A DNA stretch of 64,000 bases from a virus (IMGVR_UViG_3300032226_000551:50348-114347); one strand, 5' to 3'. Shown: positions 52,889-63,455, counted from the stretch's first letter. The notes: generated from the sequence alone by a model not told the origin. Numbers and translations: made by a program.

Positions 52889-53269
52889 ATGAGATTTAAC
52901 AAACTTGTGCGGGAAATCACAGAATCTTTAGAAAATATACCAAAATATTTATATCATGCTACATATAGACCTTTATTGAAAACTATAAAAAAAGTAGGAT
53001 TGGATACCTCGGTTAGTAAAAAAGCTTGGGAAGATTCCGTTAGTGGTTATGTTTATTTAGCATTAGATCCAGATGTAGCCGAATCTTATGCTGAATCTTC
53101 TGAAAAAGTATCAGAAGATTGGTTAGACCAAATTGTTATTCTGACTATAGATACGGATAAAATAGATAAATCTAAATTGTTCATTGATCAAAACGTTTTA
53201 GATAATCAAGGAGACACTTTAGAATACAGAGGAATTATTTCACCAGATGCGTTAAAAATACACGCTTAA
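52889..53269 (+). CDS. ADP-ribosyltransferase-fold (Tpt1/KptA-like) protein
   Basis: YLYHAT...IKKVGL, YVYLALDP, ILTIDT, LEYRGIISP. Confidence 0.6.
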   Translation: MRFNKLVREITESLENIPKYLYHATYRPLLKTIKKVGLDTSVSKKAWEDSVSGYVYLALDPDVAESYAESSEKVSEDWLDQIVILTIDTDKIDKSKLFIDQNVLDNQGDTLEYRGIISPDALKIHA

Positions 53270-53282
53270 TTTAAAATATTAT

Positions 53283-55865
53283 ATGACAAACAAATACGAA
53301 TGGCTAAACAAAGACTCACGAAAATTTCTCGAAAGAGGTTATTTGTTAGAGGGGGAGACAGCAGAAAAAAGAATTAGAGATATTGCAGAAACAGCAGAAA
53401 GATATCTAAACTTAAAGGGATTTGCTGATAAATTTGAAGACTATATGGCAAGAAGTTTCTATTCTTTGTCAAGCCCAATCTGGAGCAATTTTGGAAGAAC
53501 AAGAGGTCTTCCTATTAGTTGTGTCACGTCCGAAACTTGGATTAATACCAAAGAAGACGGCGGAAAAATGGCTAAAGATATAAAAATTGGTGATTTAGTG
53601 CTTACCCATAAGGGAAGGTACAGAAAAGTAACAGATATTATTATAACTAATAATAGAAAAAATATATTCAAACTTAAATTTGCTAATCGGATGACTCCAT
53701 TATATATAACCGAAAATCATCTAATTCTTACAAATTTAGGTTGGGTTAGGGTGGATGAATTAAACAAAGATATTCATTTGGTAGCTATAAATGGAGATAT
53801 TGATATAGAGGAAAAAGAACACGTTTTAGACCTTAAGCCTTATTGTAAAAAATATGAACCATATATTGTAGATGGAAAAATATGTAAAAAAATTTCAGAA
53901 AATACAAAAGAACAATATACAAAAAACTCAAATTATGTTTCATATATTTCAACACCAAATGAAAAAATTGAAATAGATGAAGATATTTCTTGGGCATTTG
54001 GGTTCTGGTTTGCTGAAGGAAGTTTAACAGTTGATAAAAATAATATTCCTAACGGAATAAGAATTACATACAACGATAAAGATGAAAAAGAATTAGGTGA
54101 AAAATGGGTTAGTATAATAACAAATAAATTTAATTTAAATGGAAATACATATTCCAGTAAAATTGAAAGAAATGAAAAAATAAATAGTTGGCTTACTGCC
54201 AATATAAACTCTCATATAATTGGAAATTTATTTGAAAGTTTTGGTAGAGGGTGTAAAGAAAAATTAATTCCAAATTGGATTATAAATTTACCCAAAAAAA
54301 CTCTTCAAAGTTTTTTGGATGGTTTATTGTGCGGAGACGGACATATAACAAAAGACAACGGATATAGAATAACTGTAGCAAATCCAAAAATGCTTTTACA
54401 AATATATCAAATTGGTCTTAAATTGGGACATCAAATGTCATTACAAATGCAAGAAAAACCAGCTAAATTATCTAGTACAAAATATGTATATACATGCAAT
54501 TTTAGAAAATATAAAACAGGAACTAATAAAAATATATCAAATTGTGCTATAAAATTTAACGATGGATTATTTTATACACCAATTAAAGAATTAATTTTAA
54601 CAGATAAAGAGGAAGATGTTTATGATTTTACAGTGGAAGAAGATCATTCTTTTAGTGCTGCTGGTGTGGTGTTGCACAATTGTTTTGGATCATATATACC
54701 GGATACAATGGAAGGTATTATGAATAAAGTTTCAGAAGTTGCTATGATGACAAAACATGGTGGTGGAACTTCAGCATATTTTGGAAAATTACGAGGAAGG
54801 GGAACTCCAATTTCTTCTGGTGGGGAATCTACTGGCTCTGTTCATTTCATGGAACTCTTTGATAAGTTAATGAACGTTGTTTCTCAAGGAAGTGTTAGAA
54901 GAGGATCATTTGCAACATATCTTCCAATTGATCATCCAGATATTGAAGAATTTTTAAAAATTAGGTCCGAAGGAAACCCAATTCAAAACCTTTCTATTGG
55001 TGTTTGCGTATCCGACGAATGGATGAAATCAATGATTTCAGGTGATAAAGAAAAAAGAAAAATATGGGGAGATGTTATTAAAAAAAGATTTGAAAGCGGA
55101 TATCCATATATTTCATTCACAGATACATTAAACAATAATGCCCCACAGGTCTATAAAGATAAAGGTCTTAAAATATATGCTCAAAATTTGTGTAATGAAA
55201 TAGCACTTTCAACATCAGAAGACCAATCTTTTGTTTGCGATCTTTCGTCTCTTAATTTAGAAAAATGGGAAGAATGGAAAGATACTGATGCGGTTGAAAC
55301 TTTAGTTTATTTTTTGGATGCTGTAATGACAGAGTTTATCAATAAAACTGAAAATATAGAGTTCATGCAAGCACCTAGAAATTTTGCAATTAATCAGAGA
55401 GCATTGGGTGTTGGTGTGTTAGGATGGCATTCTTTATTGCAATCTAAAATGATAGGATTTGAATCTTTTGAGGCTAAAATGCTGAATAATCAAATATGGA
55501 AATTCATAAGAGAAAAATCTGATTGTGCAACCGAACAATTAGCAAAAGAATACGGAGAACCACCATTACTGGAAGGCTATGGTAGAAGAAATACAACTAC
55601 ACTAGCTGTTGCGCCGACTACAAGTTGTACAACCAAAGACACTAAGTTTTTTTTGGGTAACGGAAAATGTGTAGATTATATAGAATATTGTAAAATGGGG
55701 GGTATAAATTTAGATGATATTCTCACTATTGAATTGGAAGATGATATGGGGAAAATCCATAATTTATATTATGATACAAAAGTTTTGATAAAAAGAAACA
55801 ACCAAACATTCGAATGTTTTGCACACGAAATAGAAATTGACGATGATATTATTGACATAATTTAA
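53283..55865 (+). CDS. nrdA: Ribonucleotide reductase alpha subunit, N-terminal fragment (cis intein plus split-intein N part)
   Basis: SSPIWSN, PIS/CF, HGGGT, VSQGSVRRG, QNLCNEI, VCDLSS, GVGVLG, RRNTTTLAVAPTTS followed by intein block A. Confidence 0.93.
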   Translation: MTNKYEWLNKDSRKFLERGYLLEGETAEKRIRDIAETAERYLNLKGFADKFEDYMARSFYSLSSPIWSNFGRTRGLPISCVTSETWINTKEDGGKMAKDIKIGDLVLTHKGRYRKVTDIIITNNRKNIFKLKFANRMTPLYITENHLILTNLGWVRVDELNKDIHLVAINGDIDIEEKEHVLDLKPYCKKYEPYIVDGKICKKISENTKEQYTKNSNYVSYISTPNEKIEIDEDISWAFGFWFAEGSLTVDKNNIPNGIRITYNDKDEKELGEKWVSIITNKFNLNGNTYSSKIERNEKINSWLTANINSHIIGNLFESFGRGCKEKLIPNWIINLPKKTLQSFLDGLLCGDGHITKDNGYRITVANPKMLLQIYQIGLKLGHQMSLQMQEKPAKLSSTKYVYTCNFRKYKTGTNKNISNCAIKFNDGLFYTPIKELILTDKEEDVYDFTVEEDHSFSAAGVVLHNCFGSYIPDTMEGIMNKVSEVAMMTKHGGGTSAYFGKLRGRGTPISSGGESTGSVHFMELFDKLMNVVSQGSVRRGSFATYLPIDHPDIEEFLKIRSEGNPIQNLSIGVCVSDEWMKSMISGDKEKRKIWGDVIKKRFESGYPYISFTDTLNNNAPQVYKDKGLKIYAQNLCNEIALSTSEDQSFVCDLSSLNLEKWEEWKDTDAVETLVYFLDAVMTEFINKTENIEFMQAPRNFAINQRALGVGVLGWHSLLQSKMIGFESFEAKMLNNQIWKFIREKSDCATEQLAKEYGEPPLLEGYGRRNTTTLAVAPTTSCTTKDTKFFLGNGKCVDYIEYCKMGGINLDDILTIELEDDMGKIHNLYYDTKVLIKRNNQTFECFAHEIEIDDDIIDII
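53520..54680 (+). mobile_element. Cis intein with LAGLIDADG endonuclease (387 aa)
   Basis: CVTSETWI...ITENH...FGFWFAEG...LDGLLCGDG...VYDFTVEEDHSF...VLHN/C. Confidence 0.92.
55626..55862 (+). mobile_element. Split intein N fragment (79 aa)
   Basis: CTTKDTKFFLGNG (block A) directly after APTTS; ends at a stop codon with the acidic tail EIEIDDDIIDII. Confidence 0.85.
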
Positions 55866-55908
55866 CAAAAGCTCCTACAAAAAGCAAACATTGTATATAA
55901 GTATATAT

Positions 55909-57042
55909 GTGAAGAAAAAATCAAACCCATATAAAATAGAAGATGTTATGTTAAAACATTCGATAACAAGAGATGAAGCAATATTAAAAATTAAAGAATT
56001 AAAAAATAAAACTAAAGGAACTCTAGAAAATTTTATTAAAAGACACGGTGAAATAAAAGGTAAAGAGCTTTTTGATATTTTTAAAGAAAAATCACGACAT
56101 ACAGAAGAAACCTTTAAAAAAAAATACGGTGATAATTGGAAAATACATTGGGAAAAATATTTGAAAAGTAAAAGTTCTGGTTTAGATGTTTTAATTAAAA
56201 AACATGGAGAAGAAGAGGGAAGAAATATTTTTCATAAAACTCAAGAAAAAAGAAAAAATAGTTTAAATGTTGAAAATTTAATTAAAAAATTTGGAAAAGA
56301 TGGATATAAAAATATAATAGAAAAAAAGAAATCTGGATCTTTAAACTTTTTTATAAAAAAGTACGGAAAAAAAGAAGGAATTTTAAAATATAAAGAATGT
56401 TGTGAAAAAAAATCTAAATCGAATTTTTTAAAATATTACATAGAAAAATACGGCGAAGAAGTCGGAGAAACAAAATATAATGAATCTAGAATGAAAAGAT
56501 CTCCAATATTTAAAGAACTTCAAAAATTATATGGAGAAACTAATGCCTTGGAAATATATAACAGTTTTAAAAATAAAAAAGAAATAACAAAAAAATACAA
56601 TTTAGAAATTAAAAATTTAAAAAAAGCTAGAAATTCTATTTTTTTTAAAAAATCTAAAGGATGCGTATCAAAGGAATCTAAAAAACTATTCAATGCTTTA
56701 GAAGAAAAATTAAAAAGAAAATTAATTTACGGAAATAAAAAAAAGGAAGTTAAAATATTTGACAAAATAAATTTTAGAACATATCATTATGATTGTTACG
56801 ATGAAAAATCCAATACTTTAATAGAATTTCATGGTGTAGCGTATCACCCTAAAAAAGATGACATAAATTGGACTAGTCCATATGGTAGAACTTATGAAGA
56901 AGCATTTTTATATGATAATCAAAAAGAAGAATGTGCTATTTCAAATGGTTTCAACTATATTAAAATATATAGCGATGAAGTAAAATTAAAACATGACTTT
57001 GAAAAAAAAATAAAAGAAATTTCCGACAAATTAATTATATGA
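55909..57042 (+). CDS. Free-standing Vsr/DUF559-like homing endonuclease with KYG repeats
   Basis: About 7 repeats of (F/L)IKK(Y/H)GxxxG; C-terminal YDCYDEKSNTLIEFHGVAYHP...D..K...A...GFNYIKIY; GTG 55909 lies 5 nt after TAAGTA. Confidence 0.75.
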   Translation: MKKKSNPYKIEDVMLKHSITRDEAILKIKELKNKTKGTLENFIKRHGEIKGKELFDIFKEKSRHTEETFKKKYGDNWKIHWEKYLKSKSSGLDVLIKKHGEEEGRNIFHKTQEKRKNSLNVENLIKKFGKDGYKNIIEKKKSGSLNFFIKKYGKKEGILKYKECCEKKSKSNFLKYYIEKYGEEVGETKYNESRMKRSPIFKELQKLYGETNALEIYNSFKNKKEITKKYNLEIKNLKKARNSIFFKKSKGCVSKESKKLFNALEEKLKRKLIYGNKKKEVKIFDKINFRTYHYDCYDEKSNTLIEFHGVAYHPKKDDINWTSPYGRTYEEAFLYDNQKEECAISNGFNYIKIYSDEVKLKHDFEKKIKEISDKLII

Positions 57043-57392
57043 AAATAAAAAAAATAAAAAAAAATGAATCCAAATGGTTTGATTTAAAAAATCCTATCGA
57101 AATTAAAACCGATCATGGTATAAAATATAGTAAAAGATTTTTTTTCAATGGATATTCCGAGGTTTTTAATTTAGAATTTAGTGATGGAAGTCAAAATAAA
57201 TTCACATCAAATCACAAATTAAAATTATTAAATGGAGAATGGTGTAGTGTAAAAGAATTAGAATGTGGTTTTGTTTTTAATAATTCTTTAATATTAAAAG
57301 CAAAAGAAAATCACGGAATTCAACCTACCATGGATATGGAAGTTGAAGATGTTCATTACTATATATTAAGAAACGGTATACATTCCCACAAT
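57039..57392 (+). mobile_element. Split intein C fragment (118 aa; carries blocks B, F and G)
   Basis: FTSNHKL (TxxH), TMDMEVEDVHYY, GIHSHN/S. Confidence 0.88.
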
Positions 57393-57860
57393 AGTTCATT
57401 TATTCTTGGACAAGTATCACCTAGCATAGAACCAATAGAATCTTGTTATTATGTCAAAGATCTTGCTAAAGGTAAATTTTCATACAAGAATCCTTATCTA
57501 AAAAAACTATTAAAAGAAAAAGGAAAACATAATGATGATACATGGAAATCAATTCTGCTGCACGGAGGAAGTGTTCAACATTTAGATTTTTTAACTCAAG
57601 AAGAAAAAGATGTATTTAAAACGTTTGGTGAAATATCACAAAAAGAAATTATTATTCAAGCAGCACAACGTCAAAAATATATTGATCAAGGACAATCTTT
57701 AAATATTATGGTTAGTTCTGATACAAAGGCTAAAGAGATAAATGAACTTATGATTTTTGCATGGGAACAAGGTATTAAAGGTTTGTACTATCAAAGAAGT
57801 GGAAACGCTGCACAAAATTTAGCAAGAAATATTTTGAGTTGTAAATCATGTGAAGCATAA
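57039..57860 (+). CDS. nrdA: Ribonucleotide reductase alpha subunit, C-terminal fragment (split-intein C part plus C-extein)
   Basis: After HN: SSFILGQVSPSIEP, GSVQHL, VFKTFGEI, RQKYIDQGQSLN, GIKGLYYQRS, terminal CKSCEA. Confidence 0.93.
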   Translation: MKIKKIKKNESKWFDLKNPIEIKTDHGIKYSKRFFFNGYSEVFNLEFSDGSQNKFTSNHKLKLLNGEWCSVKELECGFVFNNSLILKAKENHGIQPTMDMEVEDVHYYILRNGIHSHNSSFILGQVSPSIEPIESCYYVKDLAKGKFSYKNPYLKKLLKEKGKHNDDTWKSILLHGGSVQHLDFLTQEEKDVFKTFGEISQKEIIIQAAQRQKYIDQGQSLNIMVSSDTKAKEINELMIFAWEQGIKGLYYQRSGNAAQNLARNILSCKSCEA

Positions 57861-57868
57861 TAGGATTG

Positions 57869-58948
57869 ATGTTTACAATATACAATCAATCAGAATGGTC
57901 AGATATTATAAAAAATCGTCCAAAATTTGATGTTTCTATAAAAGAAGAGATATGGAAAAGGACTAGAAACTATGATGTTCCTTTGGTTGAAATTACACAA
58001 ACGGAGGCAGAAACAGACTTTCAATCACTTAAAAATCTAAATACACTCCCTCTTATAAAAGAGGGAGAATTGTTCAGTAGATATGAATATAATTGGGAAT
58101 TGGGTACAAAATACATAGATTCATGTAATGTAGGAAATAAATCATCAAATTTTTTTCATCAGGATTTAAGATATAAGTGTGATTCTATAAATTCTCCATC
58201 TCCATATAGAACATGGCATACTGAAAAGTTTTTCATGACTCTTTTAAATGCTTTGTGGACATTAAAAGTTAAAGAAGTTACTTCTGATACATTGAGAACC
58301 TGTATAGCAATGAGAAAGTATATTGCAAGTCAGTTTCGTCCATCAGCAGCTAAAGCATTATACGATCATTTTAATGCTGAAAGCGTATTGGATTTTAGTT
58401 CAGGGTGGGGAGATAGACTTAATGGTGCAATGTCATCACAAAGCGTTAAAACATACATTGGAATTGATCCAAATGATAATTTGTATGATTCATATAATAA
58501 ACAAATAGAGTATTTTAATTCGGATAAAAAAATTCAAATGAATTGTTTTCCTGCTGAAGATTTTTTACCATCATATAATGAAACAGAATTTGACTTCATA
58601 TTCACAAGTCCTCCATACTTTATCATAGAAAGATATTCAAAAGACAATAATCAATCTTGGCAAAGATATAAAAAGATAGATAAGTGGCTATCTTCTTTTC
58701 TTTTTCCGGTTATTGAAAGTTCTTGGAGATTATTAAAATCCGAAGGACACTTAGCAATAAACATAAGCGATGTTTATTGTAATCATACTATAAACAGAAT
58801 ATGTGATCCCATGAATGATTATATTTCATCACTAACAGGATCAACTAAAGTTGAAAATATAAATTATAGAATGGCAAAAAGAATTGGTAGTAAATCTGAC
58901 AAGAGTGGAATCTTTGTAGAACCTGTTTGGATTTGGAAAAAGGTATGA
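57869..58948 (+). CDS. DNA amino-methyltransferase (N4-C/N6-A type)
   Basis: SQFRP, VLDFSSGWGDR, YIGIDPN, FTSPPYF. Confidence 0.8.
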   Translation: MFTIYNQSEWSDIIKNRPKFDVSIKEEIWKRTRNYDVPLVEITQTEAETDFQSLKNLNTLPLIKEGELFSRYEYNWELGTKYIDSCNVGNKSSNFFHQDLRYKCDSINSPSPYRTWHTEKFFMTLLNALWTLKVKEVTSDTLRTCIAMRKYIASQFRPSAAKALYDHFNAESVLDFSSGWGDRLNGAMSSQSVKTYIGIDPNDNLYDSYNKQIEYFNSDKKIQMNCFPAEDFLPSYNETEFDFIFTSPPYFIIERYSKDNNQSWQRYKKIDKWLSSFLFPVIESSWRLLKSEGHLAINISDVYCNHTINRICDPMNDYISSLTGSTKVENINYRMAKRIGSKSDKSGIFVEPVWIWKKV

Positions 58949-60485: not shown

Positions 60486-63455
60486 ATGAGATTTGATTTT
60501 CCAACACACAGAAGCGGCGACACATGGAGAGGGGTCGATTCATTAACAATAAAAGATGATAACAATTTTGTTGTTGATTTAACTGATTGTAAACTATATA
60601 TACAATTTCGCTCTATTTATAATTTAGCTAGTCCAGTTGTTCTTTTATTATCAACAGAAAATAATACTATAACTTTAACAAATCCAACATCTGGTATAAT
60701 ATCTATACCAAAACAAATTATAAACGTTCCTGTTGGTAGATATAGATATGATTTACAAGTAGATTTTCCTGATGGTGTTTCTAATACGTATTTATATGGT
60801 GAATGGGAAATAATACCCGGTATAACGACTCCTAGTTTTGATTCTACTGTCAATAGTAGATTTAATGCAATAAAAATAAATTCATTAATATCTTTAGTAA
60901 GCTCCAATTCCGCAATGTGGGGTTACATGGGAACGGATATAAAAAATCTTACAGCATATTGGCAAAATGCATCAACATTTGTACATAACAATTCTGCAAA
61001 ATGGGAATTAGAATCCTTAGTTAAAGAATTATCTGCTTATTTTCAAGATTCTTATAAAAATTTAAGTTCACTAACAACAATTGTACAAAACAATTCATCA
61101 AGTTGGGCAATCGACTCTTTAGTAAGAGCATATTCCGCTAATTGGGAAAAATCTTATACATTAACAATTAATAACAGTTCAAATTGGATATCGACATATA
61201 CTTTAGTAAGGGATACCAGTTCTAATTGGGATTCTGTTTATACTTCTGTTAAAGATGCAAGTGGTATTTGGGATTCTGTTTATAGTAGTGTTCTAAACAC
61301 ATCTGGTAATTGGGATTCTGTTTATAGTTCTGTAAAAGATACAAGTGGTAATTGGGATTCTGTTTATAGTTCCGTTCTAAACACATCTGGTAATTGGGAT
61401 TCTGTTTATACTTCTGTTAAAGATGCAAGTGGTATTTGGGATTCTGTATATACTTCTGTTAAAAACATAAGTGGTAACTGGGATTCTGTATACACTTCGG
61501 TAAAAAACACCAGTGCAAACTGGGATTCTGTATACACTTCGGTAAAAAACACCAGTGCGAACTGGGATTCGGTTTATACTTCTGTTAAAGATACAAGTGG
61601 TAATTGGGATTCGGTTTATACTTCTGTTAAAGATGCAAGTGGTAATTGGAACTCTGTCTATACTAGTGTTCTAAACACAAGTTCTAACTGGGATTCGGTA
61701 TACACTTCGGTAAAAGATACTTCTGGTAACTGGGATTCGGTTTATAGTAGTGTTCTAAACACTTCTGGTAACTGGGATTCTGTATATACATCGGTAAAAG
61801 ATACAAGCGGTAATTGGAATTCTGTTTATACATCAGTAAAAGATACATCTGGTAACTGGGATTCTGTATATACCAGCGTTCTAAACACTTCTTCTGATTG
61901 GAATTCTGTATATTCATCTGTTTTAAACACAAGTGGTAACTGGGATTCGGTTTATACCAGCGTTCTAAACACTTCTTCTGATTGGAATTCTGTATATTCA
62001 TCTGTTTTAAACACTTCTGCTGATTGGAACTCTGTTTATACTTCTGTAAAAGACACAAGTGGTAATTGGGATTCTGTATATACCAGTGTTTTAAACACTT
62101 CTGGTAACTGGGACTCTGTTTATACCTCTGTAAAAAACACAAGTGGTAATTGGGATTCTGTTTATAGTACAGTTTTAAACACTTCTGCTGATTGGGATTC
62201 TGTATATTCTACATATAATAAAAATAGTGCAACATACGCAACATTAAAATACGTTGATAATAACTTTTTAGCTTTAAGTGGTGGAAGATTAACTGGTGAT
62301 TTAATAGTGGATGGAAATTTCACTATACTTGGTGATTATTCCCAAGTAGATACAATAATAACTACAACAAGTTCAATCGAAATAACAAACGAAGGATCTG
62401 CACCAGCTTTAAAGGTCACACAAAAAGGATCTGCTAATGTTGCTGAATTTTATGACGATTCACAAACAGCTTTAATAATAAAAGATGGTGGAAATGTAGG
62501 AATAGGAACAGATCAACCAAATCAGAAACTAACAGTAAATGGTTCAATAAGTTCAAATTCTGTAATTTATGATGTTTCTGGTAACAGTATAGAATGGAAC
62601 ACGGCATATACAAATTTTAAAAATACAAGTTCAATATTGGATTCGGTTTTTACAACGGTAAATAAAAATTCTTCTGTAAATTGGAGTAGAGATGCTGAAT
62701 ATGCAGAACTTAAAGCTTTAAGTAGTACTTGGATTTCTACTCATACTACCGTATCTCAAAATTCAGCCGAATGGTTAAGTGATTTTTCAATAACACAAGA
62801 ATTTTTTGATGATTTTTTAACATTAGGTGCTGCATCAACATTACCTAATGCATTTTTAAAACCTGCAAACTTGGGTGGTGCTATATTCGTAGGACCAGAA
62901 AATTCAAAACAAGGAGTTTTAATATTAAGTACTAATCCCCTAGCATCAGCTAACCAAAGAAGCGGTGTTACATCGAATTCAACCATTCATTTTGGTGAAG
63001 GAACAGAATATAGATTGATATTTTCTGCTAGAAAAGGAATTAATAGTTTTAATTCTTCGATTTCTGGAAAAATTGATATGGGTTTTCATAATCAAATTGC
63101 AACAAATAGTGATTATCCTTCATATGGTTGTTATTTTTCATCAGAAAATGGTGAAACATGGAAAGCAATTTCTTTAAAACAACCATTAATACCAGAAATA
63201 ACCGATACAAATGTACAATGTGATGATATTTGGAGAACATTTGAAATAAAAATAGATAAAAATGCTAATGTAGCACAGTTTTATATTGACAATTCTCTTG
63301 TTGCAACACATACACAGTCTATACCAAAAGGTTTAGACACACAAACAGCTATTGGTTATAGATGTTTTAGAAAATCTAAAGAAAAATTAAACGTTGAATT
63401 GAGAATAGATTGGCAATCATTAATAATGAAAAGAAATAATCAACTTTGGAAATAA
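60486..63455 (+). CDS. Tail fibre/adhesin-like protein
   Basis: BppU-like N-terminus (RSGDTW...YRYDLQV), 14-aa tandem repeats, GNVGIGT motif, beta-sandwich/lectin-like C-terminus (WRTFEI...FYIDN). Confidence 0.7.
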   Translation: MRFDFPTHRSGDTWRGVDSLTIKDDNNFVVDLTDCKLYIQFRSIYNLASPVVLLLSTENNTITLTNPTSGIISIPKQIINVPVGRYRYDLQVDFPDGVSNTYLYGEWEIIPGITTPSFDSTVNSRFNAIKINSLISLVSSNSAMWGYMGTDIKNLTAYWQNASTFVHNNSAKWELESLVKELSAYFQDSYKNLSSLTTIVQNNSSSWAIDSLVRAYSANWEKSYTLTINNSSNWISTYTLVRDTSSNWDSVYTSVKDASGIWDSVYSSVLNTSGNWDSVYSSVKDTSGNWDSVYSSVLNTSGNWDSVYTSVKDASGIWDSVYTSVKNISGNWDSVYTSVKNTSANWDSVYTSVKNTSANWDSVYTSVKDTSGNWDSVYTSVKDASGNWNSVYTSVLNTSSNWDSVYTSVKDTSGNWDSVYSSVLNTSGNWDSVYTSVKDTSGNWNSVYTSVKDTSGNWDSVYTSVLNTSSDWNSVYSSVLNTSGNWDSVYTSVLNTSSDWNSVYSSVLNTSADWNSVYTSVKDTSGNWDSVYTSVLNTSGNWDSVYTSVKNTSGNWDSVYSTVLNTSADWDSVYSTYNKNSATYATLKYVDNNFLALSGGRLTGDLIVDGNFTILGDYSQVDTIITTTSSIEITNEGSAPALKVTQKGSANVAEFYDDSQTALIIKDGGNVGIGTDQPNQKLTVNGSISSNSVIYDVSGNSIEWNTAYTNFKNTSSILDSVFTTVNKNSSVNWSRDAEYAELKALSSTWISTHTTVSQNSAEWLSDFSITQEFFDDFLTLGAASTLPNAFLKPANLGGAIFVGPENSKQGVLILSTNPLASANQRSGVTSNSTIHFGEGTEYRLIFSARKGINSFNSSISGKIDMGFHNQIATNSDYPSYGCYFSSENGETWKAISLKQPLIPEITDTNVQCDDIWRTFEIKIDKNANVAQFYIDNSLVATHTQSIPKGLDTQTAIGYRCFRKSKEKLNVELRIDWQSLIMKRNNQLWK
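61218..62225 (+). repeat. 24 tandem 42-nt repeats encoding SGNWDSVYTSV(K/L)(D/N)T
   Basis: Counted directly; the units differ mainly at synonymous positions. Confidence 0.95.

Follow-up and report, generated by a model that had tools for sequence, protein, structure and literature searches.

A homing-endonuclease gene nested in an atypically split NrdA intein of a T4-like phage and flanked by candidate pieces of a canonical split-intein junction

The nrdA gene of a T4-like phage (53283-57860 of the window, the whole stretch of 64,000 nucleotides of viral DNA that was analyzed) is fractured, and its pieces carry the halves of an intein on either side of an endonuclease gene. This arrangement raises the questions of how the gene came to be broken inside an intein at an atypical position and how one NrdA protein could be recovered from the pieces. 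In this work, we found features which make it probable that a mini-intein was broken by a homing-endonuclease gene (HEG) flanked by junction pieces of a canonical split intein, with the product restored by trans-splicing.

The fractured nrdA gene and its mini-intein

The locus consists of three ORFs, all on the plus strand, with the intein halves on the outer two (Table 1). Gene 1 (53283-55865, 860 aa) has a C-terminal APTTS followed by a 79-aa stretch with Cys as its first residue (IntN, 55626-55862), the middle ORF encodes 383 aa between the two nrdA pieces, and gene 3 (57039-57860) opens with 118 aa ending in HSHN (IntC), followed by SSFILGQ. The conserved NrdA motif at APTTS is cut across two genes, as the initial annotation had stated, and every item that it reported was found in its place in the sequence. 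The N-extein is collinear with the uninterrupted 549-aa NrdA of two relatives with approximately 95% identity (L001 and L003), in which APTTS is directly joined to SSFILGQ. These empty sites set the extein boundary and place Cys1 of the intein directly after APTTS. The C-extein is 94-99% identical to those of L001-L003 and has a dN/dS of 0.023, and the two extein halves adjoin in 80 of the 80 IMG/VR relatives retrieved. A contiguous intein further upstream in gene 1 (intein 1) is a separate element outside the split and is missing from L001, L003, and L084.

Table 1. Features of the fractured nrdA locus (slashes mark splice junctions).
Feature	Coordinates	Strand	Evidence or remarks
nrdA N-extein	53283..55625	+	394 aa after intein 1 removal, ends APTTS; Pfam Ribonuc_red_lgN/lgC
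Intein 1, contiguous 387-aa LAGLIDADG intein at PIS/C...HN/C	53520..54680	+	Pfam Intein_splicing, LAGLIDADG_3
IntN working part, aa 1-33: Cys1, block A hairpin, helix 1, helix 2 (NLDDIL)	55626..55724	+	Aligns to first 33 aa of contiguous P0005 intein
IntN tail, aa 34-79 and stop codon: catalytically dead block-B lobe, acidic end, net charge -8	55725..55865	+	hhalign, model, VIA, dN/dS
Free-standing homing-endonuclease gene, 383 aa	55891..57042	+	phrog_22677, E 3e-17
IntC head, aa 1-12, net charge +5: N-terminal strand of canonical IntC	57039..57074	+	Identity to P0149 head
IntC body, aa 13-118: N2 hairpin, live block B (TSNH), linker, block F, block G (HSHN)	57075..57392	+	phmmer, Npu DnaE alignment
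nrdA C-extein	57393..57860	+	Begins Ser+1 (SSFILGQ...); Pfam Ribonuc_red_lgC positions 392-522

The element at APTTS/S is a class-1 mini-intein, and its split follows 33 aa that comprise block A and two short helices. In the structure model, this working part of IntN has strands at residues 7-9 and 15-17 and helices at 18-24 and 29-33. The IntC body is 44% identical to the contiguous P0005 intein, phmmer searches with it recovered 50 contiguous inteins as well as 66 canonical IntN, and IntC residues 35-116 align to residues 51-137 of the Npu DnaE intein. Block B (TSNH, IntC aa 56-59) aligns with that of Npu DnaE and its His is invariant in 18 relatives, while a search for T-x-x-H in IntN found none, which puts the break between blocks A and B. 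This confirms the earlier claim, which was based on an IntN without TxxH and an IntC with block B, block F, and HN/S. IntC thus holds every N-terminal motif except block A, which is the TerL-type atypical split. The usual break point after block B is not used by the working intein, because its live block B is in IntC, and only the dead lobe described below ends there. Block G ends in HSHN/S, with N118 invariant and H117 nearly invariant in the alignment of relatives. All catalytic intein residues (Cys1, TSNH, block F, HSHN, and Ser+1) are intact and conserved, and IntC is under strong purifying selection (dN/dS = 0.085).

The family search recovered 10 atypical IntC, 50 contiguous inteins, and 66 canonical IntN, and the canonical split form is the commonest at this RNR site (66/142 classified matches). 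The contiguous P0005 intein occupies the same NrdA site and has neither the extra tail of IntN nor the head of IntC. When IntN 34-79 and IntC 1-7 are excised, the resulting 144-aa intein aligns to the 143-aa P0005 with one single-residue gap. The tail is also absent from the 49 further contiguous inteins of this family at the NrdA site, in agreement with the suggestion that it would appear as an insertion when aligned to contiguous alleles.

The dead block-B lobe and the basic strand

In a profile comparison, the IntN tail corresponds to the final 45 columns of the canonical split IntN from its family (hhalign probability 97.8%, E = 1.2e-12); it ends at the same point as in canonical split inteins and has in common with the canonical members the longer R-(D/N)-(G/N) form. 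Its model has five predicted strands (pLDDT 82) and resembles the block-B lobe of solved inteins (VIA Z 2.4-5.5, rmsd 1.8-2.7 Å); inteins and other Hint domains make up nearly all of the 33 matches listed in the fold search. The six tails found in relatives and here are monophyletic (support 0.93), with canonical IntN as the nearest neighbors. The initial annotation had described an extra 47 aa, read as a second, dead block-B lobe with D-T-K in place of D-H-K. The extra segment is present and conserved in relatives and its identity as a dead block-B lobe held, but the foreign part by homology is 46 aa (T34-I79), and the lost residues are Y..T where canonical relatives have T..H. A recent internal duplication of the intein was rejected because BLASTP of IntN against IntC returned nothing and the tail profile did not match the profile of its own IntC. 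A weak phmmer match of IntN 14-63 to blocks F/G of the Mja KlbA intein (E = 0.27) yielded to the block-B lobe matches.

The head of IntC and its canonical counterpart in the IntC of P0149 agree at nine of 12 positions. Among 62,941 12-mers from the six-frame translated window, a match of 8/11 was reached by the head alone. The earlier comparison of the basic MKIKKIKK to a canonical IntC N-terminus therefore stands, and the strand is conserved, but its length is better given as 7-12 residues. A MAFFT alignment that treats the head as merely helix 2 of a contiguous intein was set aside, as IntN has its own helix 2 and the head matches canonical IntC heads. When two alignment models were compared, however, placing the head on helix 2 of contiguous inteins scored nearly as well, such that its foreign origin rests on 12 residues.

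Judging from these homologies, the 46-aa tail of IntN and the head of IntC (7-12 residues) appear to be the two sides of the break of a canonical split intein from the same family and the same RNR site, and foreign to the mini-intein. The acidic block-B lobe, now without the catalytic T and H, would represent the IntN side and the basic first strand the IntC side. Because the tail and the head match the canonical IntN end and IntC head, and contiguous inteins at the site have neither, the endonuclease gene can be described as flanked by both sides of a canonical split-intein junction and nested in a mini-intein.

A model of the IntN-IntC complex gave an ipSAE of 0.89, compared with 0.03 for the best of three controls; in the benchmark, this mark is reached by 58/80 solved complexes and 2/110 mismatched pairs. 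The model runs agree in at least 91% of contacts, with partner pLDDT of at least 89. The head touches IntN 35-43 and 67-75, which are the first and last strands of the tail, and IntN 1-13 touches IntC 16-23, 53-56, and 108-111, as in normal block A contacts. This pairing, together with the block-B fold of the tail, is what the initial annotation had expected of a structure prediction, but the score may reflect likeness to solved split inteins, as such structures are available. The dead lobe and the basic strand may thus dock by strand pairing and charge, in a manner comparable to the capture step of canonical split inteins. Docking would bring the short block A hairpin to the nearly complete Hint domain of IntC, and the assembled domain is predicted to splice normally through Cys1, TSNH, HSHN, and Ser+1.

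The endonuclease gene and the distribution of the arrangement

The middle gene is intact, starts at TTG 55891 or GTG 55909, and has a stop codon that overlaps the IntC start (ATGA). Its product contains five K-x-G helical repeats followed by a Vsr-like (EDxHD-type) nuclease domain. In the alignment of this C-terminal domain, D57, E68, H75 (after an aromatic residue), and D98 are invariant in five homologues, and these fit the Vsr-type active-site residues reported previously (PMC2677866; PMC3239194). The model (pLDDT 86) has I-Bth0305I (3R3P) and Vsr (1VSR) as the best Foldseek matches (probability 0.94-0.96, but E of only 0.05-0.08 and TM 0.4-0.56), and a phmmer search against PDB found no sequence relative. 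The RNA upstream of the gene folds no better than shuffled sequences do (z = -0.74), and there is no enrichment of sigma-70-like sites.

The arrangement can do without this endonuclease or hold another in its place, as the gene is of the HNH type in L088 and absent in L083, L084, and L090. Vsr-like endonuclease genes also occur in group I introns (PMC2677866; PMC3239194), which would allow the middle gene to be removed at the RNA level, in which case the fragments would not be separate proteins. We consider this highly improbable, because a search of 53000-58000 against Rfam up to E = 1 found no family match, and because joining the flanks without the intein parts restores no frame. Moreover, the endonuclease-free alleles keep the stop and start codons unchanged, with spacers of 140, 194, and 26 nt (the last in L090).

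The IntN architecture of the window was found in six lineages with identity down to 26-40%, accompanied by a Vsr-like HEG, an HNH HEG, or none. The acidic tail and the basic head are kept in all six, with or without the endonuclease; the tails have charges of -6 to -8 and the heads +2 to +5, whereas the equivalent stretch of contiguous inteins averages -0.7. It is unlikely, in our assessment, that the tail and head are inert leftovers from the arrival of the endonuclease and that assembly depends on block A fitting into IntC alone, as in the TerL type. Splicing without added domains does occur in natural atypically split inteins whose IntN are 15-37 aa long (PMC10189870; PMC11766414; PMC2677866), and within the intein conservation is lowest in the tail, which evolves approximately twice as fast as IntC. 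However, its dN/dS of 0.18 is far below 1 at a dS of 0.73, the tail and its charge pattern persist across the six lineages despite their divergence, and these include lineages in which the loss of the endonuclease is old enough that a spacer of 26 nt remains. The confident head-tail interface of the model also argues for a role in docking.

Peptide-pattern scans of IMG/VR with IntC and IntN gave nothing useful, the pattern scan based on the IntN alignment found only L104 in IMG/VR and nothing in metagenome contigs, word-index searches with IntN returned only P0001 and P0002, and a tblastn search with IntN yielded no match among 50,697 deposited phage genomes. L097 has a second fracture, with a 44-aa IntN that carries 31 extra residues; the similarity of these residues to the dead lobe is not significant (hhalign probability <5%).

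Origin of the arrangement and comparison with known systems

The tail and the head were most likely carried into a contiguous mini-intein as flanks of the endonuclease gene. In similarity to the block A part of IntN, contiguous relatives have no clear lead over canonical ones, and a tree of block A and the helices gives no decision on the origin of IntN 1-33, such that insertion into a contiguous mini-intein is probable rather than certain. A somewhat unlikely alternative is that a canonical split intein was already present at the site, that recombination with a contiguous allele replaced or lengthened its short IntC gene and thereby gave IntC an N2 and a block B, and that the redundant IntN then lost its N2 hairpin and T..H, without any insertion. 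Such a history would agree with the prevalence of canonical split inteins at this site, with the first 33 aa of IntN being at best 41% identical to canonical IntN compared with 33% to P0005, and with the DDIL shared with P0047 just before the junction. However, it needs more steps, namely, an illegitimate join, an exact in-frame loss of approximately 37 aa, and the loss of both T and H. Furthermore, no intermediate that combines an atypical IntC with a full IntN was seen among the seven loci of the six lineages, and the block A part of L093 is closest to the contiguous P0005 (48%). If the insertion of a flanked endonuclease gene is correct, it provides a route to atypically split inteins, in which an endonuclease gene shifts by a few dozen codons and carries along both sides of the old break.

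The nested junction was not found in the literature searched, and its separate parts are known. As in the fractured genes of Dassa et al. (2009; PMC2677866), two same-strand ORFs with intein halves flank a Vsr-like HEG in a phage gene for DNA-precursor synthesis, and an endonuclease-free allele is known among those genes for gp41-7. The NrdA inteins in that study are located by the thiyl-radical cysteine and are split in the usual way, with IntN of 88-105 aa and IntC of 33-54 aa, whereas the intein described here is at APTTS/S and is split after block A, with a second, dead copy of the usual junction nested inside. In GOS-TerL, AceL-TerL, VidaL, and PolB16 OarG (PMC2677866; PMC10189870; PMC11766414), block A is likewise the one N-terminal motif that IntC lacks, and IntN contributes no more than the first hairpin. 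Those IntN have nothing added to their 15-37 aa, whereas the IntN of the atypical members found here are 76-81 aa long because the 46-aa dead lobe follows, and IntC starts with a canonical strand.

In canonical split inteins such as Npu DnaE and gp41-1, the acidic C-terminal half of IntN pairs with the basic IntC strand in the capture-and-collapse process (Shah et al., 2013, as outlined in PMC11766414). The tail and head are homologous to exactly these elements. However, the canonical lobe belongs to the single Hint domain and contributes its catalytic T..H, whereas the lobe here is extra and noncatalytic; binding and catalysis would therefore be separated, which suggests that nature has uncoupled these two steps of split inteins. 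Should binding between the dead lobe and the basic strand be self-sufficient, both could be added to the short-IntN inteins used in protein labeling.

Short sequences derived from endonuclease insertion also occur at the new termini of NrdA-a and NrdA-b in Aeh1, where function depends on them (Crona et al., 2011; PMC3045599), and an SbcD-like fracture has additions of 25 and 9 aa at its new C- and N-termini (PMC2677866). Those genes have no intein, no splicing, and tails without recognized origin, whereas the tails here are recognizable intein parts in a predicted working intein. By analogy with the mobE-left tails of Aeh1, the fragments might assemble non-covalently with no splicing. This has a precedent in the same enzyme, and L100 has a similar pair at a break where splicing is impossible, but we regard it as very unlikely for the window, given the intact and conserved catalytic residues, the strong purifying selection on IntC, and the nearly 200 aa of intein that would be left in the barrel domain.

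The initial annotation had gone further and proposed a mobile adapter, with unrelated split genes as further places to look for it. Every atypical member recovered comes from a single RNR site, and the tails group in one clade; the only hints of a wider occurrence are L104, with a similar dead lobe on a broken dnaE, and L100. We put forward only tentatively, as the less probable case, that the dead lobe, together with the basic strand, acts as a self-contained heterodimerizing adapter carried by HEG flanks, which reassembles a broken protein in an intein, an extein, or another gene, with or without splicing. Such an adapter would give a common origin to the "tails" at gene breaks made by endonucleases. 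In L100, an independent tail/head pair is located in the NrdA extein, and this may be an intein-derived counterpart of the non-splicing Aeh1 case; it raises the possibility that this pair also rescues genes whose break lies where splicing is impossible, which would link split inteins to the unexplained Aeh1 NrdA tails.

Gene layout and the break point of the nrdA intein

The window covers the right half of a virus record of 114 kb in IMG/VR, from a low-GC, T4-like phage, and its nrdA, which encodes the large subunit of ribonucleotide reductase (RNR), is divided by an endonuclease ORF. Two related contigs (L001 and L003) have an uninterrupted NrdA of 549 aa in which SSFILGQ directly follows APTTS, and the C-extein of the window is 94-99% identical to theirs. 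Because NrdA is uninterrupted in these contigs and the extein halves adjoin in 80/80 IMG/VR relatives fetched, the extein borders are fixed. The LAGLIDADG intein of gene 1 is missing from L084 and L085 (protein P0001), L001, and L003, such that the two inteins of nrdA are polymorphic independently. Elsewhere in the window, a 989-aa ORF (60486-63455) contains some thirty tandem 13-residue units (N-T-S-G-N-W-D-S-V-Y-T-S-V type) and probably encodes a fibre or decoration protein.

Features of the fractured nrdA and of related loci (L-numbers, related contigs)
Feature	Location	Strand	Remarks
Gene 1, RNR large subunit part	53283-55865	+	860 aa; downstream of nrdB; Pfam Ribonuc_red_lgC
Contiguous LAGLIDADG intein in gene 1, unrelated to split	53520-54680	+	387 aa; PIS/C...HN/C
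IntN, appended to NrdA N-fragment	55626-55862	+	79 residues, Cys first
Middle ORF, endonuclease	55891-57042	+	383 aa; downstream of nrdB
Gene 3, RNR large subunit part	57039-57860	+	273 aa; downstream of nrdB; Pfam Ribonuc_red_lgC
IntC, ahead of Ser+1 of C-fragment	57039-57392	+	118 residues, HSHN last
Split-intein allele, endonuclease gene internally deleted	L084:7423-7562
Split-intein allele, endonuclease gene internally deleted	L083:2454-2647
HNH-type gene between IntN and IntC, replacing Vsr-like one	L088:3542-4504
Second, upstream fracture in same RNR gene	L097:1829-5731		also L098
Broken dnaE, break inside DNA_pol3_alpha domain	L104:1414-6103
Extein-broken NrdA with lobe-like tail and head	L100:3583-5435		also L101-L103

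An exhaustive phmmer search with IntC returned 144 matches, and 142 of these were classified by profile into three main groups: an atypical group of 10 proteins with a window-type IntC at their start, 50 contiguous inteins, and 66 canonical IntNs that end shortly past block B. Nearly all inspected relatives are located at the same conserved RNR site, and one weak phage match is in a terminase gene. The Npu DnaE intein aligns through its residues 51-137 with IntC 35-116, block B included, and the related NrdA fragment P0005 has a contiguous 143-aa intein exactly at APTTS/S with 44% identity to the window's intein. These sequence comparisons place the break past block A and a further two short helices, a position other than the usual one. 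A similar break position is known in AceL-TerL, VidaL, and PolB16 (PMC10189870, PMC11766414) and in a single terminase intein of Dassa et al. (PMC2677866). A canonical IntC also forms the start of P0005 (476 aa) and occupies the thiyl-radical site of Dassa et al.; the gene of P0005 thus holds two inteins in different states, this IntC and the mini-intein at APTTS/S.

The tail of IntN and the head of IntC

The partner IntN was readable in six diverged lineages (the window, L083, L087, L088, L090, and L093), and has a common build and a length of 76-81 aa in 6/6. A profile of the last 48 residues, the tail, matched the last 45 columns of the canonical IntN profile (probability 97.8%, E 1.2e-12) and gave no match to the atypical IntC profile. 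The tails share with canonical members a form that is three residues longer past block B, and the short form is found in IntC bodies and P0005. When 130 block-B lobes were placed in one tree, the six tails grouped in a single clade (support 0.93), and their nearest neighbours were canonical IntNs. The canonical T-x-N-H is replaced by Y-Y-D-T, K-Y-D-E, H-V-G-Q, and similar, with its T or H kept in 0/6 tails.

Predicted alone (pLDDT 82), IntN has a tail with five strands. VIA-align superposed residues 34-83 of the model on block-B lobes from solved inteins, such as those of the mini-inteins Ssp DnaB and Mtu RecA (residues 52-95), with rmsd of 1.8-2.7 Å and Z values of 2.4-5.5 that are modest because the aligned piece is small. 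The structural case that this model makes for a block-B lobe lies in the uniformity of the matches (33 listed, nearly all inteins or other Hint domains), not in the size of Z.

For the basic start of IntC, the head, canonical IntCs of the same RNR site came from the partner proteins of P0047 and P0039 and from a further search; block F directly follows their first 12 residues. Residues 1-12 of the window's IntC are identical to the related protein P0149 at 9/12 positions, and the head of P0027 is identical to three canonical heads at 8/12. Among 62,941 twelve-mers from a six-frame translation of the A+T-rich window, a match of at least 8/11 was given by the head itself only. Without IntN 34-79 and IntC 1-7, the window's intein is 144 aa and aligns to P0005 with one single-residue gap, and a copy of helix 2 is retained in IntN. 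An alternative alignment that equates the head with helix 2 scores almost equally, so the head's foreign origin rests on the 12-residue match. The head DNA (57039-57066) has runs of 7-9 A with a single T between and is slippage-prone; its reading frame is intact in L083 and L084 despite these runs.

A comparison of the window with L083 (dS about 0.7-1.4) gave dN/dS values of 0.023 in the C-extein, 0.036 in block A with the helices, 0.085 in IntC, and 0.18 in the tail. Net charge is -6 to -8 in the tails and +2 to +5 in the heads (6/6 pairs), and averages -0.7 in the corresponding stretch of the 50 contiguous inteins. The complex model of IntN and IntC has an ipSAE of 0.89 (best of three controls, 0.03) and passes a mark reached by 58/80 solved complexes and 2/110 mismatched pairs, which may partly be memory of known structures, because split inteins have solved structures; we read it as likeness to split inteins, not binding. 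Contact agreement between runs was at least 91% and partner pLDDT at least 89. The predicted contacts include the ordinary ones of block A (with IntC 16-23, 53-56, and 108-111) and an extra pairing of IntC 1-9 with the tail's first and last strands (IntN 35-43 and 67-75).

Endonuclease turnover and proposed origin of the split junction

In the middle ORF there are five K-x-G helical repeats, and its C-terminal domain carries the invariant residues, acidic and His, that mark the Vsr-like EDxHD family (PMC2677866, PMC3239194); the best PDB matches of its model (pLDDT 86) are I-Bth0305I and Vsr, both weak. No intron model matched across the nrdA break region. The endonuclease gene can be both lost and replaced. 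Window bases 55871-56903 are missing from L084 and L085, and bases ~55905-56880 from L083, two independent deletions in which the last ~135-160 nt of the gene persist; the L083 and L084 alleles are a homing cycle caught decaying. L090 has a spacer of 26 nt at this position, and in L088 the endonuclease was swapped at a fixed break.

Canonical split inteins have an electrostatic capture step (Shah et al., 2013, as related in PMC11766414). Docking of the dead lobe with the basic strand may reproduce this step, with capture uncoupled from catalysis in the window's intein. It would present the 13-residue block A hairpin to the almost complete Hint domain in IntC, and the assembled domain would then splice using Cys1, TSNH, HSHN, and Ser+1.

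The simplest account of this arrangement is a single insertion of a block (lobe, stop, endonuclease gene, and head) into a contiguous mini-intein. The block would have come from a canonical fractured RNR gene and entered behind helix 2, ahead of the N2 hairpin, and the T and H of the lobe would have been lost afterwards. In a rival account, a canonical split intein was rebuilt in place. Such rebuilding takes more steps than insertion, and none of the loci seen shows an intermediate; we consider it less likely, but a candidate, because residues 1-33 of IntN are no clearer relatives of contiguous than of canonical inteins. Among the papers searched, none describes an added dead lobe in an atypically split intein and none describes a nested split junction, and no homologue of the window's IntN was found among 50,697 deposited phage genomes.

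Related arrangements in other broken genes

The upstream fracture in L097 is another atypically split intein. Its IntN of 44 aa comprises 13 aa of block A and 31 extra residues, which have no significant likeness to the lobe; downstream lie a 374-aa HNH-like gene and then an IntC, ~139 aa long, with block B. In L104, the N-fragment of the broken dnaE terminates in a dead lobe that matches the tail profile (hhalign E 6.8e-11); next come genes for a PIF1-like helicase and for an HNH_3/NUMOD4 endonuclease. The downstream frame contains the catalytic D-x-D motif, and upstream of this motif there is no head and no ATG, GTG, or TTG. This dnaE may be decaying, because its C-side lacks a head and an ordinary start codon.

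In four contigs from four samples (L100-L103), the break lies in the NrdA extein and precedes the same intein site by 13 residues; splicing is impossible at this break. The N-fragment (472 aa) matches uninterrupted NrdA up to residue 417, and its 55 extra residues, in which T-x-N-H is replaced, match the canonical profile over the same lobe columns with a probability of 52% (E 1.4e-4). Its stop overlaps the start of the next protein, in which an IntC-like head of 12 residues comes first, then 14 residues of extein, and then a canonical IntN. Because this tail is not part of the clade that the six window-type tails form, it represents a second, independent event.
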